DNA from: a virus
Lineage: Duplodnaviria > Caudoviricetes
Strand: one strand, 5' to 3'
DNA: 64,000 nucleotides
IMG/VR virus record: IMGVR_UViG_3300030433_002269
Coordinates: 18,715 to 82,714 of that record
Each line of letters begins with the position of its first letter. Position 1 is the first letter of the stretch. The notes under the pieces were generated by a model. The model was not told the origin of the DNA. It saw nothing but the letters and a program-made list of their open reading frames with translations, and ran no database searches. The translations under genes were made by a program, and so were the position numbers. Of the stretch, positions 42,143 to 62,424 are shown piece by piece.

Positions 42143-42526
42143 TCAGTATAATCTGTTACCAGTTAGTCGGCGGTTCTGTGGACCGACACGACTGGTTCGG
42201 ATGTGGCCCGGTAAGACTTTGTCAGTAGGTGCATGGACATATCTGTCAGGTGAGACCTTAATGACCGGCACTCCACCTGCGAAGATTTCGTTAGGGCCCA
42301 TAGCCACTTTTTCTTCTGCCTTGTAGATTGCAGTGTCTACTCCCTTTTGCAACTGACTTGCAGCGGCCATAAGACCGTTCAAGTGCTCACTTGCAGCGTT
42401 TCCATCATTCTCTTCCATTGCCTTGTAGAATCCATCTACGCAAGCCTTGAGTCTTCTTGCGAACGGGTCTAACTTCTTCAGGTCCATGTTCATCCCATCA
42501 CCTACTTTATCTTTAACCTTACTCAC
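42143..42526 (-). CDS. Hypothetical head-module protein (127 aa)
   Basis: GTGA overlap with the portal stop; helical N-half. Confidence 0.6.
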   Translation of the reverse strand: MSKVKDKVGDGMNMDLKKLDPFARRLKACVDGFYKAMEENDGNAASEHLNGLMAAASQLQKGVDTAIYKAEEKVAMGPNEIFAGGVPVIKVSPDRYVHAPTDKVLPGHIRTSRVGPQNRRLTGNRLY

Positions 42527-44286
42527 GCACCCTTGAATTGCCGTGCGTTAAGTATACCTTGAGATGCTTGCTGAACTGCACCCGGTTGAGAGCCTCTTTG
42601 TTGAACACTAGAAAACGGTGCACCTGCTCCCATACTGGTTCTATTCTGAGGGCTTGCAGGGCCTCTATTCCTCATTCCCATCCCCTCTCCGCCGGGATTA
42701 GCCATACCCGCCATACCAGCGGCGGCTTGCCCACCCATCACGCCCGCTAATTGCGGAGGAATATTACGACCCGGTAATTGACCGGGGTTAGCCATAGGTT
42801 GCCCCGGCATACCCATACCCGGCATACCCATACCCGGCATGCCCGGTTGGCCACCCATTTGCTGTGGGGCCGGTTTGTAGATGAATCGAATATCTCTGTT
42901 ACCTTCTTCGATAAGTTCAGGTTGGAAACCAAGCATAACCATACGCTGAGCGATGTTGACTTCCATCTCATCACGGCGTAGTCTGGTAACCTCATCCTCT
43001 TCTTCATTCGGATAAAGTGTAAGTTTCCAATCGCTAATGTCTAATTGCTCCATCATTCTAGGGAATAGATTCTCAGTATACACTTTGTGTCCACGCTCTA
43101 CAGCACGGTTAGTTACAAGAATCTGCATACCTTCATTGTTAAGTCCACCAGACTTACCGGTGTCCATCATGAATACATTTGACACACCATAGAAAGAAGC
43201 AATGCGCTGACGCATTTCATCACGGGCAGGTATGTATTGCATCTCTTCAAGTGTGTCCATGAACTTAGTCCAGTTTACAGCACCTTTACCACCCTGTGCT
43301 TCGACAGCAACCTTAGGGATGTAATGTGGGTCACGCTCCATCTTTTCATCCATTACTTTGAAGAAAGACTTCATGGACTCAAGATTATCAGTAGATACAG
43401 AAATCAAACCTCTTGGGATTCTTCTTCTGCTGTAAGCAGTATACATGTAATTGTCCATTGCTGTCAAGGTCATAGCCTGTCGCCATAGAGTAGAAACAGG
43501 TGACCTACCATACAACTTAGAAGGCTGATACTTACTTACATGTAGCACCTCTCCTTCAAGGTAATACTGTGTCTTACCTGCACCTGCAGTATTGACATAA
43601 TGAACATCCTCTAGTTTGTGACCGCATATACTACAAGTATGCTCTTCTTCGATAAAGGATTTAACTTCGCTACGGTGCAAAGGACATACTTTGTATCTAC
43701 CTCCTCTTACACCACGCTTGTCAGCAATGATACGCATAAAGATAGGGTCGCCTCTAATGACCTCTCTTACTCTATAGAAATCGATATCCTTAGTATCAGG
43801 ATTCTGATAGTATTCTTTGACCAGTATCATGTAAGCGTCATCCATGATATTGAGGTCATACTCAATTTCACGAAGCACATCAATGAACTCTTGTTCCATA
43901 GAGTTGCGTTGCTGCGTCAACCACTTACCATAAACAAGTTGACTTGGGTCAGGGTCGGACAATTCCATGTGACCACAGTTCTGACACTGCTCTACATCGT
44001 GCTGGTGCTCATGACCACAGTTCTGACATTTCTTATGGAATGCCTTTTCCCAATAATAACCTCTTCTAAATATTTCTTGCTGAAGGGTAGTAAGCACAGT
44101 TCTTAGAATGAGGTTTTCGTTAGAAACTGCATAAAGAGCAGGGATAGTAATACCCTGAACTAATACTGGTTCTTGTATACCAGTGCTCCACAAAGGCATT
44201 TGCGGTGCAGGTGTACGCCTACGCCTAAATGCCCCTGCTAAGGAGTCAAGCATTCTTCCTACTCTACTACGGTCTTTCTTCGCCAT
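42523..44286 (-). CDS. Portal protein with two zinc ribbons and M/P/G/Q-rich tail (587 aa)
   Basis: EVLHVSKYQPSKLYGRSPV, RQRIASFYGVS..GGLNNE; CQNC..CQNC and CPLH..CSIC. Confidence 0.85.
   Translation of the reverse strand: MAKKDRSRVGRMLDSLAGAFRRRRTPAPQMPLWSTGIQEPVLVQGITIPALYAVSNENLILRTVLTTLQQEIFRRGYYWEKAFHKKCQNCGHEHQHDVEQCQNCGHMELSDPDPSQLVYGKWLTQQRNSMEQEFIDVLREIEYDLNIMDDAYMILVKEYYQNPDTKDIDFYRVREVIRGDPIFMRIIADKRGVRGGRYKVCPLHRSEVKSFIEEEHTCSICGHKLEDVHYVNTAGAGKTQYYLEGEVLHVSKYQPSKLYGRSPVSTLWRQAMTLTAMDNYMYTAYSRRRIPRGLISVSTDNLESMKSFFKVMDEKMERDPHYIPKVAVEAQGGKGAVNWTKFMDTLEEMQYIPARDEMRQRIASFYGVSNVFMMDTGKSGGLNNEGMQILVTNRAVERGHKVYTENLFPRMMEQLDISDWKLTLYPNEEEDEVTRLRRDEMEVNIAQRMVMLGFQPELIEEGNRDIRFIYKPAPQQMGGQPGMPGMGMPGMGMPGQPMANPGQLPGRNIPPQLAGVMGGQAAAGMAGMANPGGEGMGMRNRGPASPQNRTSMGAGAPFSSVQQRGSQPGAVQQASQGILNARQFKGA
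42803..42840. repeat. 15-bp tandem repeat (CCCGGCATACCCATA, about 2.5 copies) encoding MPGMG
   Basis: Read directly from the sequence in the portal 3' end. Confidence 0.8.
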
Positions 44287-45556: not shown

Positions 45557-47041
45557 TCAGGCGACAAACCAATTCACCCCTGCCACACTCCTAGTGTCAG
45601 AACCACCATCCAACCAATTACCAAATTCTGGCATGTAATCATCAAGGTCAATGACTGCACCTCTGAACTGCTTAGTAGCCCAGTTAGCAAGAGCCAAAGC
45701 CATTGCCAAGTCATCGTGTACACCAACAGACTCTAGTCGACCTTTCTTGGTCATACCAAATCTGTTCAGTTGTGTCTCAAGGGTTCTTGTGAACTCTTTG
45801 CTCTTTTCGTCACCCCAAGGGGTCTTGATTCTACCTTGCTCAAATGCCATCAGTAGTGACATGAACATACTTTCCTTCTTTTGCCTTGTAGTCATGAAGG
45901 TCCTGATAGGAATGTCATTACGCATTTCTCGCAACTCTGCCTCAAACATTCGCTGGAAATTGTTACCTTCAAGTTTGATAAGGTCAGGTTGGAACCTGTG
46001 GTTGAGTAATACGACTTGTTTCTTCTGTGCTGCCCCGGATAGTCCCTTTTCATTAAGAGCGAATACAATCTGCTTGTGTTCACTATCGGGTAACATTCTG
46101 ATACCGACCATTGCCGTGTAGTCAGCGTTTGAATCTGAAGCAATTGCAGGGTCCCAACCAAAGAAGTGTTGACCATATACGCCATTGGGCTCACCGTTTT
46201 CATCATAATCGGTGTCAGCCTTGTGCATCAATGTCAATTCAGGGTCTCTTGCCTTCTCCAAGATATCTGCTGGGAACATACTTGACATATCGTGAATAGG
46301 CTCACACAGATACTCACGAGCGAATTTGATAGCAGGCATAGATGCCTCACGCTGGCGCAGTGCATCGAGTGGCCATCTACTAGGCCAAAGCGGCTCGCCA
46401 TTAGATAGAATAGCGGGATAAGTCTCAACCTTGAATGTATCTTTCTGTTCAAGTTCAGCGTAAAGGTCATTGTAACTGAACGGTGTTCCTACCATCATCA
46501 GGCGACCTGTGTGGTGAAGAACAGGTAAAAGAACAGTATAGAACCAATCAGCGGCTCTCTGAAGTTCAGTTGCAGTAGTTCCCCATAGGATATCGTCACA
46601 TACTACAACATCAGGGTGGAAACCACGAGTAGCACCACCAACCGACTTAGCCATCATACGGCTACCATTGCTGAATTCAAAGTAAGATTTATTCCAAGGT
46701 CTACCTGCTGGCTTAAGGTGTTTAATTACCGGATTAGTATCGATAAGATTTCTGATAAAGCGCATGTGTTCTAATGTCTGCTCTAAAGAGTGACTGAACA
46801 CCATAACATGCGTGCCCGGATTAAACGCTGCAATCCAAAGAGCATAACTCATGAAAAATACAGATTTGCCGTGGTCACGGCTCGCTTTAACACAGTAGTA
46901 TCTGTTCTCGTTAAGTCCCTGTTCCCACTGACCATGATGTTTAGAATAGTCAAATTCGAGCATTTCCTCAAAAAAATAACGAAATGATTTGGTGCACATT
47001 TCCCTATCCATTTCTAGGATAAACTGCTCGGTGTCGGTCAA
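45557..47041 (-). CDS. terL: Terminase large subunit (494 aa)
   Basis: Walker A ASRDHGKS, Walker B VVVCDD, coupling motif VGTP, nuclease GWDPA, LEGN and HDDLAMALAL. Confidence 0.93.
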   Translation of the reverse strand: MTDTEQFILEMDREMCTKSFRYFFEEMLEFDYSKHHGQWEQGLNENRYYCVKASRDHGKSVFFMSYALWIAAFNPGTHVMVFSHSLEQTLEHMRFIRNLIDTNPVIKHLKPAGRPWNKSYFEFSNGSRMMAKSVGGATRGFHPDVVVCDDILWGTTATELQRAADWFYTVLLPVLHHTGRLMMVGTPFSYNDLYAELEQKDTFKVETYPAILSNGEPLWPSRWPLDALRQREASMPAIKFAREYLCEPIHDMSSMFPADILEKARDPELTLMHKADTDYDENGEPNGVYGQHFFGWDPAIASDSNADYTAMVGIRMLPDSEHKQIVFALNEKGLSGAAQKKQVVLLNHRFQPDLIKLEGNNFQRMFEAELREMRNDIPIRTFMTTRQKKESMFMSLLMAFEQGRIKTPWGDEKSKEFTRTLETQLNRFGMTKKGRLESVGVHDDLAMALALANWATKQFRGAVIDLDDYMPEFGNWLDGGSDTRSVAGVNWFVA

Positions 47042-49731
47042 ATAACTGCACCTCCTTTACTTTGTTCTGCCAAGGCTTTAATTTTATCAAAACTATCATC
47101 GATAGGTTTGCCGCCAAGTTCTGGTAGTTCTGAGGGGTCAATTTCTGTAACCCCGCGATTATGGTCAATTAATTCTGGTGGTAAATCCCCTTGGTCATTT
47201 ATCTCTAATTCGGGTTGAGCACCACTAGCATGCTGTAAAGGCGGTACTGGCATTCCTTTAGCATTAGCACCTAGTAGTGGAGAAGCCGTGGGCGGCGGAG
47301 CAGTAGTAGCCATAGGTATCGTAGGAGGCCTTTGCATTCTTTCCCCCGTTTGAGTACCTGCTGCAGCCGCTCTAGCCTCGTTCTGACGAGCAAGGGCCTT
47401 TGCTTCGTATTTTTTCTTTTCATGTGCTAATTTGTTAGCCAACCTTTGCTCTTGCTCAGCAAGTCTCTCTTTTGTCTTAGTTCCTCTGACACCCGCTTCG
47501 AACTTTTCTTTCGCTTCCCATCCTCTTTGTGCTCGGGCTAATTTAGCGGCTTCTTGTTGCTGTGACTGTTTTTCTGAAATCTGACCTAACATCTGACGCT
47601 TCTCGTCCATGCTAGCCTTTGTTCCGAAAGGAATGAGGCCTTGTGCTTGTGCTCTGGCAAAAGCCATGTGAACATTCTCTTTTTCTGCTGCTTCAGCCTT
47701 TTGACGCCTTGTCGAAAGCCACTGACCTAACCCCTGACCTGCCCTAGCACCCTGTTGACCACCAAAGTAAACATTACTTGCAACTTGACCGAGGCTGCGG
47801 CCACCTGCAGCAAGGCCACCAAATGCACCTAGGGCTCTACCTATTTCCCTTCCGATTTTACCCCGTCTAGTAGGAGGTGCCCTGTGCCCTCCCGGTCCGC
47901 CTACAACATATACTGGCTTACCAGTGATATCATATTGCATCTCAACAGCGGCTTTCTTCAACATTGCTAATTTATTGTCGCTCCAGTCTATATTCCACCA
48001 TAGGTCCTCCTTAGTCGCCATTGGTATCTGTGGCGGTGATGCTTGAGGTGATGACGGAGGAGGAGGAGATGTAGCCATTGGTATAGGAGGTGCTGGAGCA
48101 GTAGGTGCTTCGACTGGTGTTCTACCCGGAATAGGTAATTGCAAACGAGGGCGAACAGGCTCTTCAGGTTGAGCCGGAGGATGAGGCTCATTACCCGGTG
48201 GTGCTAAGTTGGCACTAGTTAGAATCCTAGATTGCATATGCGAAGGAGCCTGAGATGTAACCGGTGCGTTTTGGAATACAGGTGCCATTTCAGATGTATC
48301 GATACCTGTCTCTGACAAATCGAATGGTTTCCAGCCCTTTGCATCTCTTATACCGGTAAGTAAAGGCTCGACCAATGCCCTGTGGTCAGGGCTATACTTA
48401 GCGTCAAGTGTCGAGTCTTCGTAATTCCTAATCATTTCCTCTGCCATTTTGACGGCTTTATCTTGTGGATGTCCTTCTGCCATAAGTTTGACACTCAAAC
48501 CTCTGTAAAGCGTTGCTAATTCGGCACCTCTGACACCTTGGCCTACATTACTTCTAGTGGTACCACCCATGCGCCTTCTACTTTTGTCGTGATGAGAATC
48601 GTCACCGGGCGTTATGCCAAAATGCTGAAACATCCTTCGCATGCCCTCTTTGTAGCGACCGCCTGTTGTACCTGCTCTGTGATAACTAGCCTGTATAGCA
48701 GGGGTTTTCCAAAGAGTGCTGAGTGTTGCAGGGTCAGATATATCATGCTTTACACCTTCCATCTCTAATGCTTCTGCCATTTTGTCCGAGTTATCTTTAC
48801 TACCCTTTCTACCTTTAGCGGTAGGTACGAACATCCAGTCTGGCATCATCCTGAGCATTCGACTAGGGTGCAAGTCCTTATGGGTGATAGAATCTTCCAT
48901 TGCTGCAGGTACCCCTAATCGATTCCTGACATTAGGGTGCATGGTACCACCCATCAGTGCTTTTTGCTCACCCTGACTTAATGCTATTACTCTACCATTG
49001 GTCAGTTTACTAATCGGTACCTTTGCACTTTGAGTGAAATAATATTTGTCTATGTCAGGGAAAGGAGCAGGTAATCCCTTAGAATATTCCCGTTTATTTA
49101 TGGCATCTAATATGAGGCGTGCAGACTCATAAGGTACGAAAAGACCAGCGTCAATTGATTGGCCTCGGTCAGCAGCAGCAACATCAGGTGTACCATGTTT
49201 GTAAGAATAATTCTGCTTCATGCCCAGTGAACCGTCAGTATTTCTGCGTCCTCTAACTTGATGGGTTCTCGCGTCTAACTTTCCCCCCTCAGGGTATCCA
49301 CCAACTACATTCTTTCTCCAAGAAGGATGGGCGAAAGGGCTCAATTTGTGATGGCTACCTTCAGGCTGTTGTTTGTTATGGTGATTAAAAATAGCGTCCA
49401 TTACACCCTCATGGCGGGTTATATCATGCATAGTGATGTCAGTCCTACCAGCAGCGTGCGCCGCTTCTAACAAATCTTTAGCAACAGCATCAACGGGGTG
49501 ATGACCTTCAATCAATTCTCCAGTCAGAGGATTATATGCAAGTGCAGGGTGGTCGGGGTCATCGCCTTCACCCAAAGCGTGTTCAGGAGGCCAACCCTCC
49601 ATAAAGTGCATTTCCCCATCGTCATCGATGAAGACCAAGTTAGCATTCTTTAGAATAGAATTTTCGTCATGGACAAAGTCTCGCCAAGTCTTAGTGACTT
49701 TACTGGGAATGTAAGTAGACTTGAACATCAA
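47038..49731 (-). CDS. Large hypothetical protein (897 aa), possible internal/ejection protein
   Basis: Pro-rich linkers with IPMAT x3; Gly/Ala amphipathic segment and coiled coil after MLKKA. Confidence 0.65.
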   Translation of the reverse strand: MMFKSTYIPSKVTKTWRDFVHDENSILKNANLVFIDDDGEMHFMEGWPPEHALGEGDDPDHPALAYNPLTGELIEGHHPVDAVAKDLLEAAHAAGRTDITMHDITRHEGVMDAIFNHHNKQQPEGSHHKLSPFAHPSWRKNVVGGYPEGGKLDARTHQVRGRRNTDGSLGMKQNYSYKHGTPDVAAADRGQSIDAGLFVPYESARLILDAINKREYSKGLPAPFPDIDKYYFTQSAKVPISKLTNGRVIALSQGEQKALMGGTMHPNVRNRLGVPAAMEDSITHKDLHPSRMLRMMPDWMFVPTAKGRKGSKDNSDKMAEALEMEGVKHDISDPATLSTLWKTPAIQASYHRAGTTGGRYKEGMRRMFQHFGITPGDDSHHDKSRRRMGGTTRSNVGQGVRGAELATLYRGLSVKLMAEGHPQDKAVKMAEEMIRNYEDSTLDAKYSPDHRALVEPLLTGIRDAKGWKPFDLSETGIDTSEMAPVFQNAPVTSQAPSHMQSRILTSANLAPPGNEPHPPAQPEEPVRPRLQLPIPGRTPVEAPTAPAPPIPMATSPPPPSSPQASPPQIPMATKEDLWWNIDWSDNKLAMLKKAAVEMQYDITGKPVYVVGGPGGHRAPPTRRGKIGREIGRALGAFGGLAAGGRSLGQVASNVYFGGQQGARAGQGLGQWLSTRRQKAEAAEKENVHMAFARAQAQGLIPFGTKASMDEKRQMLGQISEKQSQQQEAAKLARAQRGWEAKEKFEAGVRGTKTKERLAEQEQRLANKLAHEKKKYEAKALARQNEARAAAAGTQTGERMQRPPTIPMATTAPPPTASPLLGANAKGMPVPPLQHASGAQPELEINDQGDLPPELIDHNRGVTEIDPSELPELGGKPIDDSFDKIKALAEQSKGGAVI

Positions 49732-50896: not shown

Positions 50897-51613
50897 TCAC
50901 TCCAATACTTCGATTATATCTGGGTCAAGTTCGCCATCTGCTTGTGACAGAATCTGTTGCTTGATACGCTTCCAAGTGTCTGGACTTTCTTTACCCAGTT
51001 CCAACTTGAGGATATTGATTGTGTTAGTAGATGCAGCCTTGGTTGGCTCTGCCCACTTCTCTTGATACTTGCTTAAGTCTTTGAGAGTCTCTCTAACTTC
51101 TTTGTGCAACTTGACCATATCGGATACAACTCCATCGTCATGTATGCTGGTTTCAGCCATGAACTGACTTAATTTTGCATTAAGCCCTTCTACATTGGAG
51201 CGCATCAAGTCTACTTCTTCTCCTACTTTCAATGCTACAACCGCAGTTGCACTTTTCTTGACAAGTGGTTGGAAATGATGCTTCATATGACGGAATACCA
51301 ACTGCTCGGAGCAATCAAGTTCTTTGGAAATCTCGTCAGTAGTAATTTCTCCCTCAAAGTAAGAAACCTCATACGCCTTTCGATTATCACTAGTGCAGAC
51401 TACACAAGAGTGATTTGCACCAGCGTGATAATCCCCCATATGATTGTTCATATGACGCTCTGTAGTGTTGGCTCTCCAACCCATTTCTCGGTCTAAGTCA
51501 CGAGGCTCTAGTATACCATCTACTAGATTTTGCTCAAGGTCATCCCTGTCTTCTTGTTGACACAAGGGGCAAGATGCTCTTGTCTGGCGACCGGTCCCCA
51601 TACGCATTCCCAT
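50897..51613 (-). CDS. Putative terminase small subunit with two tandem Zn/HTH units (start 51613, 51607 or 51601)
   Basis: CPLC...ERHMNNH and CVVC...FRHMKHH repeats, then coiled coil; upstream of terL. Confidence 0.5.
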   Translation of the reverse strand: MGMRMGTGRQTRASCPLCQQEDRDDLEQNLVDGILEPRDLDREMGWRANTTERHMNNHMGDYHAGANHSCVVCTSDNRKAYEVSYFEGEITTDEISKELDCSEQLVFRHMKHHFQPLVKKSATAVVALKVGEEVDLMRSNVEGLNAKLSQFMAETSIHDDGVVSDMVKLHKEVRETLKDLSKYQEKWAEPTKAASTNTINILKLELGKESPDTWKRIKQQILSQADGELDPDIIEVLE

Positions 51614-51693
51614 GACAAAGGTATGAATAACCCTTTTGTATGGAAAGGTTGAGAATAGGTCTGATGAAACTACCAAGAGCGAAGCCCAGAATC

Positions 51694-52002
51694 ATGGGAG
51701 TTCCCATATCTATAGAGACCGTAAAAGGCCTTACTAAAGCGGGTAGAGACATATTTACCAGAAGATTTGTCGACGATGATGTCAAGAAAATAAGACAGGA
51801 CATCTGTATGGTATGCCCAAGTTGGGAACACAAGAGTAACCGATGCAAAGAATGTGGGTGCCAGATGAGAATCAAGACTAGCCTTGCTTCTAGTTCATGC
51901 CCACTTGGTAAATGGTATGCTCACGGCGAGTCACTACATCTCACTGATTCTGGAATAGATAGTGCCGAGCATGAAGAAGGCACCGAAGAGACCAGCGACT
52001 AA
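51694..52002 (+). CDS. Cys-rich small protein (CxxC...CxxCGC...K...CPxGKW)
   Basis: CMVC..CKECGCQMRIKTSLASSSCPLGKW, a pattern common in phage proteins; opposite strand to neighbours. Confidence 0.65.
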   Translation: MGVPISIETVKGLTKAGRDIFTRRFVDDDVKKIRQDICMVCPSWEHKSNRCKECGCQMRIKTSLASSSCPLGKWYAHGESLHLTDSGIDSAEHEEGTEETSD

Positions 52003-52185
52003 ATAGGCCATTACGGTACTACTAATCGAATCTGAACCTACTAACAAGATAATCCCTAATGTGACAATTATCGATAATAACTGAACCATCACCATATCAA
52101 CAATAACGGTTTTCTTAGGAGCAAAAACCCCTAATGTACCGCTAGCAAAACCTACTCCTAATTTGTCTCTGTCCATCATAATCAC
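51934..52185 (-). CDS. Small two-TM membrane protein (83 aa)
   Basis: Two hydrophobic stretches; SD GAGGTGA. Confidence 0.65.
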   Translation of the reverse strand: MIMMDRDKLGVGFASGTLGVFAPKKTVIVDMVMVQLLSIIVTLGIILLVGSDSISSTVMAYLVAGLFGAFFMLGTIYSRISEM

Positions 52186-52823
52186 CTCATTCCCATCATC
52201 TTACCCATGAAAGAGCCAGCATTACTACTAACTTTGTTCATGAATCCTTCATCTTGCAATGCTGCATTCAAAGCACCGCCCATCATACTTTGTTGAGCAA
52301 GAGCCGCAATCTGTTGCTGCTGCATCTCCGCTTGCTGAATATTGGTTTGACTTGCCATCTGCAGTGCGTTAAACTGACTTGTGACATTCTCAGCACTCAT
52401 TGTCTGAAGATTAGAAGGAAGGCTGGTTATATCCATCTTCATGGTGTCACTCTCGCCATCAATTGTAAAAGTGGCGTTCTTCAGTATCTCCAATACAGAG
52501 AAACTAACAAGGTCATTGAGCAACTGAAGCATAGTAGCCATCTGTGCACTACCGATGAACCTATCCATAGGTGCCAGCGTCTTCATCAAAGCAAGTTGTA
52601 TCTCTGCTTCGCTTGGAGGAGTCATAGGTTGACCCATCATTCCCATTTGTTGTTGGTTCATCCCCATACCTGCCATGAAACCTTGTGCCATTCCATTTTG
52701 AGCAAAGCCTTGTTGCTGTTGCGGAGCAAATGGGTTTGCAAAGTTATTACCTTGCGATGCTTGGTTATTCACACCCAGATTTAGGGCTCCGTTTTGCTGT
52801 CCTGTATTACCAAATAGACTCAT
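52182..52823 (-). CDS. Q/M/G/N-rich low-complexity protein (213 aa)
   Basis: Composition; central helical segment. Confidence 0.7.
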   Translation of the reverse strand: MSLFGNTGQQNGALNLGVNNQASQGNNFANPFAPQQQQGFAQNGMAQGFMAGMGMNQQQMGMMGQPMTPPSEAEIQLALMKTLAPMDRFIGSAQMATMLQLLNDLVSFSVLEILKNATFTIDGESDTMKMDITSLPSNLQTMSAENVTSQFNALQMASQTNIQQAEMQQQQIAALAQQSMMGGALNAALQDEGFMNKVSSNAGSFMGKMMGMR

Positions 52824-52832
52824 ATTATCACT

Positions 52833-53861
52833 TCATTGTTGGGGTAAAGTCATCTGCTCTTGAGGGGCGGCTATAGTTTGGGCAGAAGGTACTCCCTCAT
52901 TATTGATTGCCCCGTTAACCGCTGCAACGGCAGATGGATTAGGATTCTGCATAATACCAAGATTATTAATTGCGTCAGCCAATGTAGGCTGCTGAGAAAG
53001 AATCTCCTGTTGGAAAAGCCTGAGGTCGAACACAATCATAGTTACATCGTTGATTCCGGTCTCAGGGTTCTTGTAATGTAACAAATTGATACCGGCTTGT
53101 GTCTTAGAGTCCTTTTCAAGTTCGACGAAGAAAGGCTCATACTTCTTGAGGAACTCAGGCGTGTTATCCTTTTTCTTAACTATAGAAATTGGTACTGCTA
53201 CAGTAGATACACCTTTCTTCATCATTTCCTTGAGGCCGATTTTAGTCTTGTTGTGGTCCTTATCGTTTTCAGATTCCCACTTACAAAGAAGATGGTAAAG
53301 GTGTAGATGCTCAGGGCAATAAGTCCCTTTCATCTTGCGACCATTGGTCACTTGCTCTCTAGCAACAAATGGTTCAGGAGTACCAGTCACTGGATTTTTC
53401 CAATAAAGGTCCCAAAGACTCTTACCTGTCTCCTCATCACAAATCTTAGCATACAGATTATCGTATTTGATTAACTCTTCACAGTCACATCCGTCAATAA
53501 CACATAGGTTGCTCTGTCGGTTGTAACGGTATTTTCGCCCCCAGACCCAACGAACTGGGTTATACCAAGCCCTCTTAGTAGGCGTTAGTAATTTGCGAGC
53601 CTGCTTGATATCTTGCTTTCTGGCCTTTCTTGGGTCAGGGTTCCTACTAGGGTAGAAATTAACCTGAGGGACCTCTATGTTTTGCTTTTGTGCAACATCT
53701 TTCATCCCTTGCTGCGCTGCCTGCATTTCAAGCAACTGCTCGTGACTTGCATTACCTTGTTGACCAAGTGCCATCAAGTGCGCTTGGCTCATGTTAGCAA
53801 GGTTAGCATCGCCCCTTGGAACTCTACCGTAACCACCAAATCCCATACTCATTCTATTCAT
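52833..53861 (-). CDS. Hypothetical protein with split Zn-binding motif (342 aa)
   Basis: CVIDGCDC...YCPEH; Q/M-rich termini; SD AGGTGA. Confidence 0.7.
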   Translation of the reverse strand: MNRMSMGFGGYGRVPRGDANLANMSQAHLMALGQQGNASHEQLLEMQAAQQGMKDVAQKQNIEVPQVNFYPSRNPDPRKARKQDIKQARKLLTPTKRAWYNPVRWVWGRKYRYNRQSNLCVIDGCDCEELIKYDNLYAKICDEETGKSLWDLYWKNPVTGTPEPFVAREQVTNGRKMKGTYCPEHLHLYHLLCKWESENDKDHNKTKIGLKEMMKKGVSTVAVPISIVKKKDNTPEFLKKYEPFFVELEKDSKTQAGINLLHYKNPETGINDVTMIVFDLRLFQQEILSQQPTLADAINNLGIMQNPNPSAVAAVNGAINNEGVPSAQTIAAPQEQMTLPQQ

Positions 53862-53890
53862 TCTCTCTCACCTTTTGATAAATAATTTAC

Positions 53891-54613
53891 TCACATCGAT
53901 AACAAATCAATCATCGTATTCTCGACATTCCACCCAATGCGTGTGGCCATCATACTCCTTTTAGTAGGTATACCCGCTTTTTGTAACCTAATCAAGTCTT
54001 CTCTGAACGGGTCAAATATCTTGTGTTCACCTAAACGCTGTTGCTGCCAGAGGACATTCGCTGGCTCATCCCACCACTGGTCCGCTTTATTGGCAACCAA
54101 CATAATTACCTTGGGGCAATACTTCTTACCCCGCCACCAAGACCTAATAGTTCGATATCGATATTGTCGATGAAGTATAGCGTCTACCAAATACTTGAAT
54201 CCACCGACAGCCTGCACAGCGTCATCTCCACCAAGTCCTACTCGGTGGTCAAATACGAATACTATTGCCTCTACCTGTCGATTAACCATATCATCAATCC
54301 ACAGATTCCAAAACCTATCTTCACCAGCGATATCAGAGGAGTATACTACACGATGGTCACCTTTCCAACTCAACCGTTTGCGAGTAGGATTGGGTAAAAG
54401 AAACCGATTCATGCCCGGGACTTTGAAGTGCTTAGTTCTCTCATCTATAGAAATCTCTTCCATCTCACCGGGTGTAGTCATGTAACGGTCTAGCGTCGTC
54501 TTCCCTACCATAGTGGGCCCATAGATACCGACTCGTCGTGGCTTCCAATAGTGCCACAGTTCCTTGGCGAACACCATACCCCCAACAAGTGCAGAACCAC
54601 CCATTACAGACAT
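53891..54613 (-). CDS. Small Ras/Arf-like P-loop GTPase with hydrophobic N-terminus (240 aa)
   Basis: G1 GPTMVGKTT, probable G2 Thr (ERTKH), G3 DIAGE, G4 ANKAD; strand EAIVFVFD. Confidence 0.8.
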   Translation of the reverse strand: MSVMGGSALVGGMVFAKELWHYWKPRRVGIYGPTMVGKTTLDRYMTTPGEMEEISIDERTKHFKVPGMNRFLLPNPTRKRLSWKGDHRVVYSSDIAGEDRFWNLWIDDMVNRQVEAIVFVFDHRVGLGGDDAVQAVGGFKYLVDAILHRQYRYRTIRSWWRGKKYCPKVIMLVANKADQWWDEPANVLWQQQRLGEHKIFDPFREDLIRLQKAGIPTKRSMMATRIGWNVENTMIDLLSM

Positions 54614-54621
54614 GATATCAC

Positions 54622-54879
54622 CTAGTCAAAAATTGCATTGGACCATTCTGCAAGTTTGTTTTTCAACCAGTTACCACTAGATTCCCAGAGATTCCAGTCT
54701 GAATAAAACTCAAAGGCGCTTACTACGAAGGCGGTTAGCGTAGAAAAGATGACCACTTTAATCCAACCAACAGTGCGCTCATATGCTACATCTACAGTGT
54801 TAGCAATATGCATGCTCCTCAGAGTTTCTTCGACTGCATCGTCGGAAGGAGTCTTGAATATACGGCCCAAATGCATCAC
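54622..54879 (-). CDS. Single-TM membrane protein (85 aa)
   Basis: WIKVVIFSTLTAFVVSAFEF. Confidence 0.65.
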   Translation of the reverse strand: MMHLGRIFKTPSDDAVEETLRSMHIANTVDVAYERTVGWIKVVIFSTLTAFVVSAFEFYSDWNLWESSGNWLKNKLAEWSNAIFD

Positions 54880-55451
54880 GCCTTAGTCTTCTTCTCATAT
54901 CTTTTGTCTGGAGTCCCGTCTTTCTTCAAGCGGACCGGTTCCTCGTTATCAGAAAAGTCGATACCAAGGCTAAGTGGAGCCTTTTCTTTAGTGACTTCTG
55001 GTATGAAATCAACGGTGTTAGTGCTACTACCTACTACCCTAGATTCAAGCCAAGGTGGAGTTTTACCGGGATTACTTTCCATCCAATTTAATTCAGCGTT
55101 GAGTTGCGCTTCTTGCATTTTCATTTCCATGTCCATTCGTCTTTGGTCAAAAGATGTCTCCATTACACGGTAGCGCATGCGGCGCTCTCTTTCTTGAGTA
55201 GCAATTCTGGCTTTTTCGTCCATCCCTTGCTGGAAAAACATCTTGAAAATATAGTAAGCAATCCCTTGCACGGCAAACGCAGCCATTGCATAGGTTATTC
55301 CATTCATTCCGGGTTCGTCTAATACAATCCATAATTCAGCGTCAAATATGCCTACTGCAAGTCCAATAGTCATAGCCTGTACTAGGATTAAACCCATCAG
55401 GCGAATCTCGCTTTGGTCGTGCTCAGGCATGGGGTTAGATGAAGATATCAT
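54876..55451 (-). CDS. Two-TM membrane protein with coiled coil (191 aa)
   Basis: Two N-terminal hydrophobic helices, R/M/E/Q coiled coil, KKDGTPDKRY tail. Confidence 0.7.
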   Translation of the reverse strand: MISSSNPMPEHDQSEIRLMGLILVQAMTIGLAVGIFDAELWIVLDEPGMNGITYAMAAFAVQGIAYYIFKMFFQQGMDEKARIATQERERRMRYRVMETSFDQRRMDMEMKMQEAQLNAELNWMESNPGKTPPWLESRVVGSSTNTVDFIPEVTKEKAPLSLGIDFSDNEEPVRLKKDGTPDKRYEKKTKA

Positions 55452-55476
55452 TAAGGCTCCCTCTCATGTAACCGAA

Positions 55477-55491
55477 AGTATAGTGTCACAT
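55477..55491 (-). promoter_or_regulatory. Putative operator TATGTGACACTATAC(T)
   Basis: 14-bp exact match AGTATAGTGTCACA to 61141-61154; upstream of the GTPase operon. Confidence 0.5.
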
Positions 55492-55516
55492 AAATGATTC
55501 TATGATAAATTAAGGT

Positions 55517-57044: not shown

Positions 57045-57236
57045 ATGGAAGCCAATCTACAGTATATTTGGTACATCGCATTAGCAGTTTGGGCAACTAC
57101 CTTTGGGATGCTTTGGTGGTGGGCTACTTCAGAGTTCCCCGACTCGCAAAGTGACGAGCCCTATTCTTGTGGGGGTCCTCGGCAACCATGCTTCCGTCTT
57201 TTGTGTGAGACATGTCGGGACCACCTTGACCCATGA
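57045..57236 (+). CDS. Possible small membrane protein (63 aa)
   Basis: Trp-rich TM; TATAACTATA about 20-25 nt upstream; 3' part overlaps the opposite gene. Confidence 0.4.
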   Translation: MEANLQYIWYIALAVWATTFGMLWWWATSEFPDSQSDEPYSCGGPRQPCFRLLCETCRDHLDP

Positions 57237-58071
57237 TACCACGCTTACGGCGCTCACGGGCTAACTCCCTGCGATACTTTTTGCGCTTAGGTGACGACTC
57301 ATACTTGGTATTGTAAGCATTCTTGTGGGCTATAGCCTCAGGACTAGTAGCCTCTTTGAGCATACGCCAAGCAAGGTCCATTGGTTCACCCGCCTGTATC
57401 ATGTCAGGCTGTTGTATAGGTGGTGGCAACATACTCGCTACTTGCTGCTGCTCTTGCATTGAAGGATAATAACCAAATTGGTCTGCCCTTATTTGACTAT
57501 ACATATCACCAGTATCAGGGCGTTCCGCTAAATATGAATTTACACCGGGTTGACTCGATTGGTCTGCTTGATGTGCCCCATACTCATGAGCATAGGACTT
57601 AGCCTGTTCTCTTAATGCTAATCTTTCTTTATCAGCGTCAATTTCAGATTGATTAAGAATAGGTCGTTTTTGAAAACGATTCCTCCTCCTTCCCGAAGGT
57701 TGTTCCCTCGGCTGCGATTCGCCAAAGACTGGGGCCATTAATTGAGGCGAGCCAAATTTTTCAGTTGCGAAATCTTCCATTTCGCCTTCAATCAAACTAT
57801 GTACATGCTCGTGTGCAAGAGTGTCTGCTAAATCTTGTACAGATTCATCACTGTCATCTGTATCTCTTCCGACCCTAGCCCCAACAAAAGAGCCATCGGG
57901 TTGAAGCCGTGGGAAAGAGCCGCCTTTTGTGTAGGGAGAGCGTATATTTCTAAAATGGCTTAGTGCATCTTCTGAATCCTCGCCGGGTGTTGTGAAGAAA
58001 CCCCTAGAACTATCATTATCATCTATGTAGAAATCTTTCAACAAAAGCCAAGCAGACTCAAACGGCGACAT
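57124..58071 (-). CDS. Two-part protein: zincin-like metallopeptidase plus basic HNH-like tail, each preceded by the AWxxLK motif (315 aa)
   Basis: LAHEHVH (HExxH) and YAHEYGAH; SPFESAWLLLK and GEPMDLAWRMLK; DMSH..NRAR tail. Confidence 0.65.
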   Translation of the reverse strand: MSPFESAWLLLKDFYIDDNDSSRGFFTTPGEDSEDALSHFRNIRSPYTKGGSFPRLQPDGSFVGARVGRDTDDSDESVQDLADTLAHEHVHSLIEGEMEDFATEKFGSPQLMAPVFGESQPREQPSGRRRNRFQKRPILNQSEIDADKERLALREQAKSYAHEYGAHQADQSSQPGVNSYLAERPDTGDMYSQIRADQFGYYPSMQEQQQVASMLPPPIQQPDMIQAGEPMDLAWRMLKEATSPEAIAHKNAYNTKYESSPKRKKYRRELARERRKRGIMGQGGPDMSHTKDGSMVAEDPHKNRARHFASRGTLK

Positions 58072-58107
58072 CTACTCACCTGTCCACGCTGCTTCAAGAG
58101 GATTCAT
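58072..58107 (-). CDS. 11-codon mini-ORF MNPLEAAWTGE (motif-only peptide or gene relic)
   Basis: ATGA overlap with the upstream stop; TAG directly abuts ATG 58071; contains the GGTGA SD. Confidence 0.45.
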   Translation of the reverse strand: MNPLEAAWTGE

Positions 58108-58304
58108 CCTTCATACACCACCACGACAATGAACATACCACGACAATTCTCCATGTGAACTGCCCTAACTTTACTGCCATCTCCGCCGCCACCTCCAGTG
58201 AGTGCTCTCAATTTTGTTTGTAAGTCACCGGCGAGGTCGTGACCAGTTGAGCCTAAAAAGTCAGCAGGTGCGTATTCATACTTTACTACATGTAAGTCGC
58301 CCAT
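58104..58304 (-). CDS. Small protein (66 aa), possible paralog of 32146-32301
   Basis: KYEYAPAD..RGMFIVVVVY vs VFEFAPAE..RGLSVYTVF. Confidence 0.55.
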   Translation of the reverse strand: MGDLHVVKYEYAPADFLGSTGHDLAGDLQTKLRALTGGGGGDGSKVRAVHMENCRGMFIVVVVYEG

Positions 58305-58323
58305 TAACAGTTCCACCTCTTCA

Positions 58324-58908
58324 TTACCACTTCACCTTATCTGCCCAGTATGCTGCGCTCATTGGACCGCGCTTAATATTCTTAGCATGGCGGGCCTTAA
58401 ACGATGCACGCTTCTTTGCTCTCTTACCTTTTGGATTATCTTCGGTTACAGTATCTGCACCTTGTTCACCGAATCGAATTGTCTTGACTTTACCACCTGA
58501 CCTCGCTACAACCACATGGGATTTCTTAGGGTGATTGGGAGTACGCTTTGGCTTGTTGTAGCCAGATACACCAGCACGAGCAAGCCTTGGGTCCTTTTCT
58601 TTCTTCAGCAAGAGCCAAGCGTCTTCAAACGGGTCACCACTCTTAACGACAGTAGGCTTACCACCCACTCCTTGCTTCTTTGAGCGCTTCCTCTTAGTAG
58701 CCGCTCTCTTTTGACCACTGGTCATTTCACCACTGGTCTTAGGTGTTTTACTACTTACTCGCACACTAGGTCTACACTTGGGGTAACCTTTGCTAGATGT
58801 CTTTGCCTTGGACCTACCACAAGGTGGATGCTTACCATCCTTATCTTTACGAGAAACATCAACCCACTTTTCTTTGAACCAACGGTTCAAATTTTTCTGC
58901 ACCGTCAT
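58324..58908 (-). CDS. Highly basic two-domain protein split by GDPFEDAWLLLK (194 aa)
   Basis: RWFKEKWVDVS..CGRS..YPKCRP and KSHVVVA..IRFGEQGA..SFKARH..SAAYWADKVKW, both common in marine phages. Confidence 0.75.
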   Translation of the reverse strand: MTVQKNLNRWFKEKWVDVSRKDKDGKHPPCGRSKAKTSSKGYPKCRPSVRVSSKTPKTSGEMTSGQKRAATKRKRSKKQGVGGKPTVVKSGDPFEDAWLLLKKEKDPRLARAGVSGYNKPKRTPNHPKKSHVVVARSGGKVKTIRFGEQGADTVTEDNPKGKRAKKRASFKARHAKNIKRGPMSAAYWADKVKW

Positions 58909-59225
58909 TTCTTCTTCCCCTTTTTACCTCGGAACTTACCCTTGCAGTATTGCACTGCCCAACCATTTGCGTAGGCTGAAGGGTAAACCTTGAATTTGCG
59001 CTTGGCCGCAGCCTTGCCTTCAGGGCATAATTTCTTAGCAACATTCTCAGGAACCACTAGGATTTCGCCCTTCATCATACGGAATGCGATGTCCATTGGT
59101 TCGCCCATTGTGAACATAGAGTCCTTGTCACCAGAGTCGTCAATATTGTAATGCATCCTGTCTATGTGGTTACCTAGTTGCACAGGATGTGCGAACTGAG
59201 CACCGCATATATCGCAGGTCGGCAT
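58905..59225 (-). CDS. C2H2 zinc finger plus motif plus basic YPSAYANGW domain (106 aa)
   Basis: CDIC..LGNHIDRMH; GEPMDIAFRMMK; KFKVYPSAYANGWAVQYCKG. Confidence 0.7.
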   Translation of the reverse strand: MPTCDICGAQFAHPVQLGNHIDRMHYNIDDSGDKDSMFTMGEPMDIAFRMMKGEILVVPENVAKKLCPEGKAAAKRKFKVYPSAYANGWAVQYCKGKFRGKKGKKK

Positions 59226-59385
59226 GGCCTATGCACTAAGGCCGCTGATAATAAAAGTGGCCCTTACCCCGAGAAAGGAAATACTAGTTAGAAAAAATAG
59301 CGACAACAAACAAGTTATTAGGGTTGGGGTAGGGTAAGAACCGATTCACCCCTTTTCGTCGTTTCTATAAGAACATTTCCCTAAA

Positions 59386-59529
59386 TCAGTCCTCTGCCAT
59401 CCACATATCATCACATTTCTGACAAAGCCATGCGTGACCCCTGTGGACTCCACCGACTTTAATGTACAATCTCTTGGTAGGATGTGCCCCACAACTAGGG
59501 CAAACCGGGCTTGCTTTGCGACCATTCAC
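59386..59529 (-). CDS. Zinc-ribbon microprotein missing from the ORF track (47 aa)
   Basis: Hand translation MNGRKASPVCPSCG..WLCQKCDDMWMAED; GTGA overlap. Confidence 0.6.
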   Translation of the reverse strand: MNGRKASPVCPSCGAHPTKRLYIKVGGVHRGHAWLCQKCDDMWMAED

Positions 59530-59687
59530 AATTCTTCCTCCTTATCCATGATGTATCTTCCCATCACACTAACCTTGAACTCAAGTTTTCTGAGTTTTTT
59601 GTTTAGTTCCTCAACCTGCTTGACATAAGACCAGACAAGTCCACCTGCCAAAACCAAGATGATGAACCAAACAAGACCTAGGCTCAT
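59526..59687 (-). CDS. Single-TM plus coiled-coil microprotein missing from the ORF track (53 aa)
   Basis: Hand translation MSLGLVWFIILVLAGGLVWSYVKQVEELNKKLRKLE; TTTTAA about 25 nt upstream. Confidence 0.65.
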   Translation of the reverse strand: MSLGLVWFIILVLAGGLVWSYVKQVEELNKKLRKLEFKVSVMGRYIMDKEEEL

Positions 59688-59701
59688 GTTAGTGCGATAG
59701 G

Positions 59702-59716
59702 TTTGTGACCCTTAAA
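59702..59716. promoter_or_regulatory. Putative operator TTTGTGACCCTTAAA overlapping a TATA box
   Basis: 13/15 match to 62662-62676. Confidence 0.4.
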
Positions 59717-59721
59717 ATTAA

Positions 59722-60027
59722 TCATCGCTGTGGTCGTATTTGGTCTAATACAGAAATCTCTTCTGGAGTTAAACCACCAAATCGGGCACGATGATACATG
59801 TTCATCCCTCTTGTTACTGGGTCTGCTGACGCTTTAGGAGGAAGCGGTGGTACTTGCATCATACCTTCCTGTATCTCCTCTTCGCTCAAATCTGATAATC
59901 TACCAGTGCTCGAAACAAGGCCCATAGGATTAGGAGGCTGAGAAGGAGCAGGGGTAGCCTGCATTTGTGAAAACGAAGGTAAAGATTGCTTCAACACAGT
60001 CCAAGCCTGCTCAAATGGACTCAACAT
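59722..60027 (-). CDS. Hypothetical protein with N-terminal SPFEQAWTVLK motif (101 aa)
   Basis: Motif at residues 3-13. Confidence 0.7.
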   Translation of the reverse strand: MLSPFEQAWTVLKQSLPSFSQMQATPAPSQPPNPMGLVSSTGRLSDLSEEEIQEGMMQVPPLPPKASADPVTRGMNMYHRARFGGLTPEEISVLDQIRPQR

Positions 60028-60029
60028 GA

Positions 60030-60878
60030 TTAAGCGGATAGGGTTTGGGCTAAAGAAGGTTCTGCTATCTTCAAAGCAATGCGCTTGGCGTTGGCAAGGT
60101 CATCTATAGACACGCCACAGTCGTAGCCCCTAGCGGTCAACCAGTTGACCAGTGTCTCGGTTGCCAAGTTACCGGGACTCCCCTCTACAAACGGACAGCC
60201 TCCTAATCCGGCAATGCTAGCATCGAATTCAGTAATTCCACACTCGATACCCTTGCGAACCAGCGAAAGCGCAGCCAACTCACGCTCAGCACGGTGATGA
60301 AGATGAAGTGCGGGGCGAAGCCCAAACTTCTCACAGATACCAGCACCAACCTCAACCTCATGCTCAGTGCCCACTCCGACAGTATCTGACAACACCACAG
60401 TGTCACCAAACAGTTTCGCAGCCTGAATAGCCTTGACACGCTTACCCATAGGGATGTCACCCTCGTAAGGACAGCCGAAGTAGCACGATATATAGACACG
60501 GACATTAGCCTTCGGCACACCTTCAAGCATGAACATGTAGCGAGCCAAAGCCTCATTGAGTTCACAACCAAGGTTTCTTCTGTTGAATTCCTCAGATGGC
60601 GAGAATACTATATTGAAGTGAGTGACCCCTGACTTAAGCGCCCGGTCCATCCCACGCTGATTCATAACGAGTGCAGCCCCCTGTCCGTCAAAAACCCGCT
60701 CGGCATCTGCCATCTGGGGAACATAAAGGGGATGAGCGAAACTCACAGTTTCTATAGAGTTGAGGCCTGCGCTCCTAAGTGCATCGATTAGTGCCCGCTT
60801 CATACGAGTGGGTACAAGTTTCTTGATTGTCTGTAATCCGTCACGAGGGCCGACTTCGTAGATTGAAATCTTCTTCAT
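60030..60878 (-). CDS. hmgL: Hydroxymethylglutaryl-CoA lyase (DRE-TIM)
   Basis: YEVGPRDGLQ, ETVSF..VPQMAD, LSDTVG, LHLH, FDASIAGLGGCPF..GNLATE; SD GGTGA before ATG 60878. Confidence 0.9.
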   Translation of the reverse strand: MKKISIYEVGPRDGLQTIKKLVPTRMKRALIDALRSAGLNSIETVSFAHPLYVPQMADAERVFDGQGAALVMNQRGMDRALKSGVTHFNIVFSPSEEFNRRNLGCELNEALARYMFMLEGVPKANVRVYISCYFGCPYEGDIPMGKRVKAIQAAKLFGDTVVLSDTVGVGTEHEVEVGAGICEKFGLRPALHLHHRAERELAALSLVRKGIECGITEFDASIAGLGGCPFVEGSPGNLATETLVNWLTARGYDCGVSIDDLANAKRIALKIAEPSLAQTLSA

Positions 60879-60893
60879 CGCCCTCACCAACAC

Positions 60894-61055
60894 TCACTCG
60901 AGGAAAAACAGTATCTTTGTTATCCTACGCCAAGCCTGCTGCCTAGCGGTCAACTTCTCTCCAGTCACAAATTCAATGCCCGTTTCTTTTTCGACACGGT
61001 CTAGTCTAGCAGATTGATAATCAAACCATTCGTCGAGTAAATTACACCGCGTCAT
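60894..61055 (-). CDS. Small protein missing from the ORF track (53 aa, MTRCNLLDEWF...)
   Basis: Hand translation; AT-rich box about 25 nt upstream; abuts the hmgL SD. Confidence 0.55.
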   Translation of the reverse strand: MTRCNLLDEWFDYQSARLDRVEKETGIEFVTGEKLTARQQAWRRITKILFFLE

Positions 61056-61140
61056 GTTGACTCCGAAAGTCGTCTAAGAGTTAAATTTTACTGCTCAAAC
61101 TCCCCTAAATTGATAATAATTGGCGGTTCTTGCTTGGGCC

Positions 61141-61155
61141 AGTATAGTGTCACAA
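61141..61155 (-). promoter_or_regulatory. Putative operator TTTGTGACACTATAC(T)
   Basis: 14-bp exact match to 55477-55490; intergenic. Confidence 0.45.
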
Positions 61156-61234
61156 AAAATGAAATCAAACCTAGTATGACGCATAACACCCAAAGTGGCA
61201 AGCCTGTCACTTCAACGGGGTCAGGGAGCATACA

Positions 61235-61999
61235 TCACATCAGGTCCATGACATTGCCACCGTACATCGAAGGTACTGGCTGAGAGCGGTCAACATAAGG
61301 CATCTGATTAGCCAAAGCAGTCTGGTACGAACCAGAGTTAGCATTAGTCATTATAGCAGCAAGTGCATCTGCCGGGAGATAAGCAGTCTCATCGCTATCA
61401 ATAATTGAGTCATACTCTCCACCATGCATCAGTTCGGTAAGCGCCCCTTGCTGAAGAGCGGGAAGCACTTTGTCATGCAAATCTAACTGGTATTGTGGAG
61501 AGCGTATGTCAGGTCTCTGTGTTTCTACAGGCAGTCCCATAGTCGAAGCCGTGTTGTAAAGTCGCATCTCGTTACCCGGAACAGGCCGACGACCACCTAA
61601 CATACCAGCCGCCGCCATACTACCGGGACCAGTAAAGTCAGCAGCGTGACCAGAAACAGGCTCTCTGTCGTGATACATTGTGCCATCTGCATCTACCGTG
61701 TGGTCACCACCATGAAGAGAGGCATCCATACCACGCAAATCCATGTCGCCCATTGCCGAAGCCAACTGTTCTAAAGAAGGCTTGGAATGTTCTGCCCCTG
61801 CTAACCCCATGTTACGAAGCATCTGCCTGTAAGCCATACCTTGAACGGCTGGATGAACCGCACCTAACTGCGTGTTTTTCATTTCAGGCTCAGATAAATT
61901 CATCCTACCCCTATGCTGAGAATAAGGTAAAAACATCTGCGTCCTAGGGTCAGCCTTCAAAAATTGCCAAGCAGCGTCTATTGGTCTCATGGTCATCAC
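61235..61999 (-). CDS. Hypothetical protein with N-terminal RPIDAAWQFLK motif (254 aa)
   Basis: Motif at the N-terminus; overlaps the upstream stop. Confidence 0.75.
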   Translation of the reverse strand: MMTMRPIDAAWQFLKADPRTQMFLPYSQHRGRMNLSEPEMKNTQLGAVHPAVQGMAYRQMLRNMGLAGAEHSKPSLEQLASAMGDMDLRGMDASLHGGDHTVDADGTMYHDREPVSGHAADFTGPGSMAAAGMLGGRRPVPGNEMRLYNTASTMGLPVETQRPDIRSPQYQLDLHDKVLPALQQGALTELMHGGEYDSIIDSDETAYLPADALAAIMTNANSGSYQTALANQMPYVDRSQPVPSMYGGNVMDLM

Positions 62000-62424
62000 T
62001 GCTGCACAAACTGATTAATCTGTTGTGGGTCTAACTGCCCCATACCCTCATAGTTAAACATGTCATTAGGTAAACCTAACTGATTTGAAAGATGAGTGTT
62101 AACCGCCTGATTAGTGTAGTTTGAAACATCAATGCCTCCTGTGTCAGGAACCATAGTTCTCATCGCCATCGGCTGAGCAATGCTAGGGTCTTTACTTGGA
62201 GGATTCAGATTTCTTTTGTCACCATACTGGTTTGCGTAGTGAGCCCCTCCAAACGCTTCAGGTCTATCCCTCATGAGTTTATGCTGAGTAGCAATATCTG
62301 CCTGATTGAAAAGTTCAGCGTTTTTTCGACCTCTGTCAAAATAACCCGGTGCTGGCATAGATTGCATAGGCCTCTCTGCCATCATGTCTTTCAATATCTG
62401 CCAAGCCTGCTCAAAAGGTCCCAT
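61996..62424 (-). CDS. Hypothetical protein with N-terminal GPFEQAWQILK motif (142 aa)
   Basis: Motif at residues 2-12. Confidence 0.75.
   Translation of the reverse strand: MGPFEQAWQILKDMMAERPMQSMPAPGYFDRGRKNAELFNQADIATQHKLMRDRPEAFGGAHYANQYGDKRNLNPPSKDPSIAQPMAMRTMVPDTGGIDVSNYTNQAVNTHLSNQLGLPNDMFNYEGMGQLDPQQINQFVQQ

Follow-up and report, generated by a model that had tools for sequence, protein, structure and literature searches.

What use could a tailed virus have for a small GTPase that is encoded together with membrane proteins of its own? The question is raised by a locus in the stretch of DNA analysed here, a 64,000-nucleotide segment of IMG/VR record IMGVR_UViG_3300030433_002269 (hereafter the window). 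Six open reading frames (ORFs), g1 to g6, lie on its minus strand between positions 51934 and 55451, where a sequence-only reading of the window had placed them. That reading had proposed a GTP-regulated system for lysis, budding or compartment formation, and any such proposal is drawn from the position and composition of the cassette as read from its sequence. We find that g3 is, as predicted from sequence and model, a genuine small-GTPase fold of the Arf/Sar/SRbeta type and that the six genes, judged by their homology and order, are a deeply conserved unit. We favour, tentatively and with less than even confidence, the view that the cassette encodes a GTP-switched membrane complex that acts late, in virion release.

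The argument starts from g3 (53891-54613, minus strand), a 240-aa divergent Arf-family-like small GTPase. Its G1 motif (G32-x4-G37-K38-T39), T60 of G2, D94-x-x-G97 of G3, N175-K-A-D178 of G4 and M222-A-T224 of G5 are invariant in 22 close relatives, and G32, G37 and K38 are invariant across 14 deep members of the family. G1, G3 and G4 are retained in members down to ~21% identity, and G5 reads S-A-x in the distant ones. The distant members also have D-x-G-G-Q/H at G3 plus a Trp 11 residues after the Asp, which we take to be the Arf-type switch II signature, as in Arf1. The catalytic Gln position is occupied by Glu in the window protein and by E, D, Q, H or A among its relatives. The interswitch exceeds that of Arf1 by ~14 residues and has a basic patch, P-x3-RKR, that is conserved. 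The protein has two more inserts relative to the Arf proteins; the insert at 149-167 is basic/aromatic. Thus the claim that g3 is a GTPase with intact G1, G3 and G4 is well supported by conservation, and so is that of a hydrophobic N-terminus, in the form of a weakly hydrophobic helix described below.

The predicted fold agrees with the motifs. With an AlphaFold2 (AF2) model of g3 (predicted local distance difference test, pLDDT, 70), the best 500 Foldseek matches in the PDB were small GTPases only (prob 1.0 in those listed). An exhaustive VIA structural scan gave Arl2 (Z 12.7, 179 residues), a Loki RagA-like protein (12.6) and SRbeta (12.4), and next Gs (12.0), Arf6 (11.9) and Sar1 (11.3), with Rab and Ras ~2 Z units lower. 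At the sequence level, a shallow profile of close relatives only found no significant match among PDB sequences; a deep profile that included the distant members found the Asgard GerdArfR1 (8OUN, E 5.9e-10), then Arl8, Arl1, Arl5 and Arf1. The window protein itself has no Pfam match at E<=1, and PHROG and NCBIfam scans also fail. Across 14 family members, Pfam Arf (PF00025) is the best family, matching five of them (best E 5.2e-9), and SRPRB matches two (best E 5.9e-6).

Where does this family belong? Among 1.84 billion representatives, 85 clusters match it, and none of these is a cellular GTPase. A tblastn search of g3 against 50,697 GenBank phage records found no match, and 185,579 species genomes yielded three matches only, each on a short contig of a metagenome-assembled genome (MAG) that bears the whole cassette. 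No fused form of g3 turned up, a result of little weight. Three distant GTPases (P0126, P0146 and P0202) come from contigs below 2 kb without gene context, and for P0127 and P0158 no loci were retrieved among viral contigs. On these searches the g3 family is a virus-specific, isolated lineage. The three MAG contigs (L086, L087, which is JABLTJ010000060.1, and L088) are 8-16 kb long, carry complete cassettes and come from one Asgard MAG and two alphaproteobacterial MAGs; they are probably mis-binned viral DNA. The genome of the Asgard MAG has 40 Arf-family matches.

For a tree, the reference set comprised ArvA-OapB-OapC operons together with Arf-like and Ras-like genes from an Asgard MAG and its phylum. 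The viral hidden Markov model scored Arf proteins highest (26-29 bits), then ArvA (16-24) and Ras-like proteins (4-16). Viral, Asgard Arf, ArvA and Ras-like sequences form four clean clades, the branching order among which is unsettled, with long-branch warnings. The viral and ArvA clades are separate, each at 99% ultrafast bootstrap and 97-99% SH-aLRT. Comparison by hhalign with small in-house profiles gave no family discrimination because the reference profiles differ in depth. OapB (PF09846) has no match in the whole 82.7-kb record, in which controls were detected, and g4 has no OapC/DUF2072 match. By the tree and these searches, g3 does not count as a relative of ArvA/OapA, the vesicle-forming GTPase that the sequence-only reading had cited as a precedent.

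The likeness to the ArvA/OapA-ArvB-ArvC system of Euryarchaeota is one of kind: an Arf-like GTPase of the archaeal world with an N-terminal helix and an adjoining gene for a Zn-binding protein (PMC10927574). That system has been implicated in membrane deformation (PMC10927574). In the ArvA reference loci examined, the ArvA-OapB-OapC order is as expected and there are no transmembrane (TM) proteins, whereas the viral cassette has three and its record is without OapB.

With the Arf family (Arf1, Arf6, Arl1, Arl2, Arl8, Sar1; Asgard ArfR, 8OUN and 8OUM), g3 shares the small-GTPase fold, a predicted membrane-seeking N-terminal helix and its best sequence-profile and Pfam affinities. It differs in the Glu at the catalytic Gln position, the longer interswitch, the two more inserts and a helix that looks hydrophobic rather than amphipathic, and also in being virus-encoded with dedicated TM partners. 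The helix is predicted by AF2 at ~3-23 (mean hydrophobicity ~0.5, moment ~0.3) and is followed by an aromatic belt and K-P-R-R. By these values it resembles a permanent membrane anchor more closely than the amphipathic, toggling helix of Arf proteins. Thus, of the proposed resemblance to Arf and Sar proteins, the fold and the hydrophobic N-terminus hold, and an Arf-like type of helix looks less likely.

Two other groups of GTPases invite comparison. SRbeta is also an Arf-like GTPase on an N-terminal hydrophobic anchor (Z 12.4, root-mean-square deviation 3.0, 157 aligned), but it is eukaryotic and pairs with the SRX domain of SRalpha, and its sequence support is weak, coming from 2 of the 14 members. 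The small GTPases of giant viruses (mimivirus Rab, 5XC5; Rab, Ran and Ras of Nucleocytoviricota) are, like g3, virus-encoded members of the Ras superfamily. They are recent captures of host Rab, Ran or Ras genes and are easily recognised by sequence, whereas the g3 family is isolated and sits in a virus of a prokaryote. Among the BFVD matches listed, all small-GTPase rows come from giant eukaryotic viruses and none from a prokaryotic virus. To our knowledge, there are essentially no reports of small Ras-superfamily GTPases from viruses that infect prokaryotes. The g3 family is Arf-like in kind, and we file it under no named subfamily.

Is the GTPase a chance neighbour of the other five genes, or part of a unit with them? 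The order and orientation of g1-g6 are kept in 80 of the 80 loci retrieved with the GTPase, where they are followed by dn_259 and dn_387, and a clade at ~40% GTPase identity has the identical layout; the synteny expected across magroviruses is indeed there. In distant clades we detect g1 (E 1e-5 to 4e-18), g5 (E 2e-21 and 3e-10) and g6 (E 1e-6 to 1e-9), and the g2 slot is filled by an ORF of 70-79 aa with one TM helix. A 59-kb contig (L133) with a GTPase at 38% identity keeps g1, g2, the GTPase, g4, g5 and g6 with one extra gene inserted. The cassette there is flanked by glycosyltransferases plus a TFIIB-like gene at one end and by a resolvase block at the opposite end, and a further 8.7 kb of flank has no capsid or terminase match, with a weak tail-fibre hint only. 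Since the cassette is intact amid such different neighbours, the module appears to travel as a unit, independent of the packaging genes. The extra gene on this contig (7241-7999, plus strand) encodes a 252-aa orphan between the g2-like gene and the GTPase; we considered it as a GTPase paralogue and rejected it.

The evolutionary rate is informative too. In four genomes the identities of the major capsid protein (MCP), large terminase (TerL) and GTPase to those of the window are 77/73/84, 78/77/77, 75/73/70 and 64/47/41. The GTPase has diverged about as much as MCP and TerL and therefore looks like a core gene. From these comparisons the cassette as a whole looks like a core, vertically inherited unit.

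The five partners fall into no recognised family: scans of the six cassette proteins against Pfam, PHROGs and NCBIfam returned nothing usable, and g1, g2, g5 and g6 are all orphans. Their topology was read from hydropathy profiles averaged over ~70 orthologues. The 191-aa g1 (54876-55451, minus strand) is a membrane protein with two hydrophobic helices, at ~18-43 (strong) and ~49-72 (weaker), followed by a conserved charged/coiled-coil segment at ~80-125 and a basic tail. It belongs to no Pfam or PHROG family, and its neighbours in the Atlas are viral hypotheticals only. The 85-aa g2 (54622-54879, minus strand) is a single-pass membrane protein with its TM helix at ~38-62, a conserved N-terminal 35 residues and a Trp-rich C-terminus. 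The 83-aa g6 (51934-52185, minus strand) is a two-pass membrane protein (helices at ~25-50 and ~57-80) that has holin-like size and topology, but its C-terminus is short and weakly charged. Between these, g5 (52182-52823, minus strand, 213 aa) has a low-complexity N-terminal third rich in Q, N, G and M, a weakly hydrophobic helix in the middle and a C-terminal half rich in Q.

The remaining partner, g4 (52833-53861, minus strand), is a 342-aa soluble orphan. C120, C182, H185, H187 and H190 are invariant in 34 aligned sequences and C193 is not, and we regard the invariant Cys/His set as a probable single metal site. None of its 779 homologues has a Pfam domain. Its AF2 model (pLDDT 72) matched no fold: BFVD gave one viral protein, the Atlas no usable match, and the best VIA score was Z 5.7, to connexins. 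We treated this score as noise and rejected a connexin-like fold. The ORFs and the averaged hydropathy thus agree with the block as originally described, a minus-strand series with a two-TM, a one-TM, a GTPase, a Q/M-rich and a two-TM protein, and the five invariant residues are in keeping with the putative Zn-binding role given to g4, though one further Cys is not invariant.

The genes are arranged as a single transcription unit might be. The pairs g1/g2 and g5/g6 overlap by 4 nt, and the remaining gaps are 8-29 nt. Upstream, a candidate archaeal promoter and ribosome-binding region spans 55457..55494 on the minus strand, with TTTAT at 55490-55494, ~43 nt 5' of the g1 start, and GAGAGGGAG at 55457-55465. 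Across 70 aligned upstream regions of relatives, TTTAT reaches at least 70% column conservation, and a Shine-Dalgarno-like box, GAGAGGGA, recurs ahead of the start codon. The pattern of TTTAT plus GAGAGGGA is consistent with an archaeal TATA box and ribosome-binding site, as expected of tightly packed genes behind a promoter region of their own. In a hydropathy scan the cassette is the only membrane-protein cluster in the 64-kb window, which encodes almost no membrane proteins outside g1, g2 and g6.

Downstream, an apparent 250-bp gap after g6 is occupied by an ORF on the opposite strand (51640-52002, plus) that the sequence-only reading had overlooked. Situated between g6 and dn_259, it shares 69 nt with the 3' end of g6 and encodes a 120-aa Cys-rich protein (C-x2-C ... 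C-x2-C), for which a weak DUF6171 hint is the only family indication. The protein sequence is conserved in 70 related loci (29-74% identity); in ~13 related loci the ORF is missing, leaving a gap of only ~70 bp. Because this ORF is conserved in most loci, the cassette is bounded downstream by a convergent gene in most lineages.

The setting of the cassette bears on its function. In the window, the genes of a tailed virus follow one another on the minus strand in a single long run. Library scans of the encoded proteins identify TerL (45557-47041), a portal (42523-44286), a prohead protease (34278-35681) and an HK97-type MCP (33102-34262), all on the minus strand, and more than 50 kb of co-directional late/structural genes are headed by the six-gene cassette. 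The nearest relatives of the MCP are those of the haloarchaeal viruses HVTV-1 and HCTV-1/5 (34% identity). The parent record of 82.7 kb, 78% complete according to CheckV, also encodes a family-B DNA polymerase (PolB). Relatives of the virus are marine contigs of ~90-109 kb; PolB is found in four of five related records, and an MCM Pfam model has no match in the five. The gene content, size and marine origin of the relatives agree with the published description of magroviruses (PMC5434244). From its genes, the virus fits a magrovirus-like tailed virus of marine archaea of roughly 100 kb, and we assign it to no group. The head genes and the MCP affinities bear out its placement among tailed archaeal viruses.

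How might the parts of the cassette act together? In a release complex, the GTPase would be tethered through its hydrophobic N-terminal helix to the cytoplasmic face of the host membrane; an N-out, C-in orientation is suggested because the helix is followed by the aromatic belt and K-P-R-R. There it would be located with g1, whose coiled coil would be cytoplasmic, and with g2 and g6, and the soluble g4 and Q/M-rich g5 would serve as its regulator/effector pair. The nucleotide state would gate a change in the membrane proteins late in infection, and membrane disruption would be timed or executed for virion release in a host without a murein wall. In such a scheme g6 may be the hole-former and the GTPase the clock or licence. 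The narrower proposition, that a virus-encoded, membrane-anchored Arf-like GTPase times or drives the opening of the host membrane in a GTP-gated lysis without bacteriophage counterpart, is in our judgement possible, though somewhat unlikely.

We consider late GTP-gated membrane action the most economical explanation because of the composition of the cassette, its place at the head of the late genes, the lack of a murein wall and the absence of another lysis candidate. On the last point, no holin, endolysin or other lysis family was recognised among the ~38 window proteins scanned against Pfam, as the sequence-only reading had noted, and the cassette contains no hydrolase family. In lambdoid phages the lysis genes occupy the corresponding place, immediately before the packaging genes. 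Holin-based lysis cassettes of tailed phages likewise open the late genes with small multi-TM proteins, just upstream of packaging genes, and g6 has the size and topology of a class-II holin. The viral cassette differs from them in having no endolysin or spanin, in its high conservation, in the GTPase and two soluble orphans, and in the weakly charged tail of g6.

Several points weigh against a release role. The cassette contains no enzyme domain, and the role is read from gene content and position. Lysis cassettes usually evolve fast and are mosaic; the genes here show the same degree of conservation as those for capsid and terminase. g6 is without the highly charged C-terminus that is typical of holins. 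The variable residue at the catalytic Gln position makes it uncertain whether g3 hydrolyses GTP on its own. The window also has many orphan proteins, among which a separate release system could be hidden.

The conservation that sits badly with lysis genes is what a membrane-bound platform for assembly or packaging would lead one to expect. On this explanation, which we think unlikely, head assembly or DNA packaging would be nucleated or licensed by the cassette at the cytoplasmic membrane, and the GTPase would serve as a checkpoint on assembly. A parallel is T4 gp40, with whose help the portal starts proheads on the membrane. The cassette stands directly upstream of dn_259, dn_387, an 897-aa protein, TerL and the portal in 80 of 80 magrovirus loci, and its rate of divergence matches that of MCP and TerL, which is what a core gene for morphogenesis should show. 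However, the L133/L136 element has an intact cassette with no dn_259 or terminase-type gene within ~17 kb, which argues somewhat against a platform, and none of the six proteins is similar to any known scaffold, chaperone or partner of the portal. In our estimate an assembly platform fits the data about half as well as a release role.

In a third explanation the cassette would remodel the host membrane for purposes unrelated to lysis, such as GTPase-driven vesiculation, a viral-factory or nutrient-uptake compartment driven in the same way, or superinfection exclusion. Arf, Sar1 and archaeal ArvA deform membranes via their N-terminal helices (PMC10927574; bioRxiv 10.1101/2024.02.28.582541), Arf and ArvA receive higher scores from the viral profile than Ras-like proteins do, and ArvA likewise has a Zn protein beside the GTPase. 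However, the family is not nested in ArvA, the virus has no OapB and g4 no OapC match, the g3 helix looks hydrophobic rather than amphipathic, and tailed virions have no envelope that would need budding. We regard this explanation as distinctly improbable.

Still further from the data is an SRbeta-like aid to targeting or insertion, in which the anchored Arf-like GTPase and a Met-rich binder, g5, would insert viral membrane proteins. SRbeta has an N-terminal TM anchor, its chains stand near the structural top (Z 12.4, 11.8, 11.1 and 10.9), and SRPRB is matched by the two family members noted above. However, the window encodes almost no membrane proteins to insert besides the three of the cassette, and general scans turned up no SRX-like or SRP-like partner, though no search was aimed at SRX; we give this idea very little credence. 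We give equally little to virion-carried ejection proteins, TM proteins and partners that would be packaged and form a DNA-delivery channel on entry: the cassette adjoins head genes and ejection proteins of tailed phages often contain TM segments, but none of the six cassette proteins has the x-E-x-A-W-x-x-L-K tag of five neighbouring proteins, and we know of no precedent for a GTPase switch inside a capsid.

The egress machinery of tailed archaeal viruses has been stated to be completely uncharacterised (PMC10791045). If the release role is true, the cassette would be the long-sought release machine of these viruses. An Arf-like switch paired with membrane proteins of its own supplies genes that can be cloned as concrete candidates for a virus-host interaction of a new kind at the membrane. 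It would also be a second archaeal-world example, besides ArvA and the Asgard ArfR proteins, of Arf-type GTPases at membranes outside eukaryotes. We found no description of the cassette in the searchable full-text literature and no mention of a GTPase in the magrovirus papers examined.

Some neighbouring genes deserve comment. dn_259 (50897-51676, minus strand), which comes after the cassette in 80 of 80 magrovirus loci, carries Cys/His pairs that are conserved and a C-terminal half rich in helices, and it matches no family; the conserved start lies ~20 codons 3' of the listed TTG. Its position makes it a possible small-terminase-like protein or regulator. The 897-aa protein (47038-49731, minus strand) between dn_387 and the terminase also has no family match; it has long Pro-rich linkers, the motif I-P-M-A-T three times and a Lys/Glu/Ala-rich, helical-looking segment. 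Upstream of the cassette (57124-62424, minus strand), five otherwise unrelated proteins carry x-E/D-x-A-W-x-x-L-K near the N-terminus (FESAWLLLK, FEDAWLLLK, FEQAWTVLK, IDAAWQFLK and FEQAWQILK). In this E/D form too the motif occurs in 0 of the 6 cassette proteins. One tagged protein has a second, internal copy, MDLAWRMLK, and looser copies are found in 400-aa and 387-aa neighbours. Finally, a 287-aa protein (60030-60893, minus strand) matches an HMGL-like family (E 2.3e-21) and is a candidate auxiliary metabolic gene.

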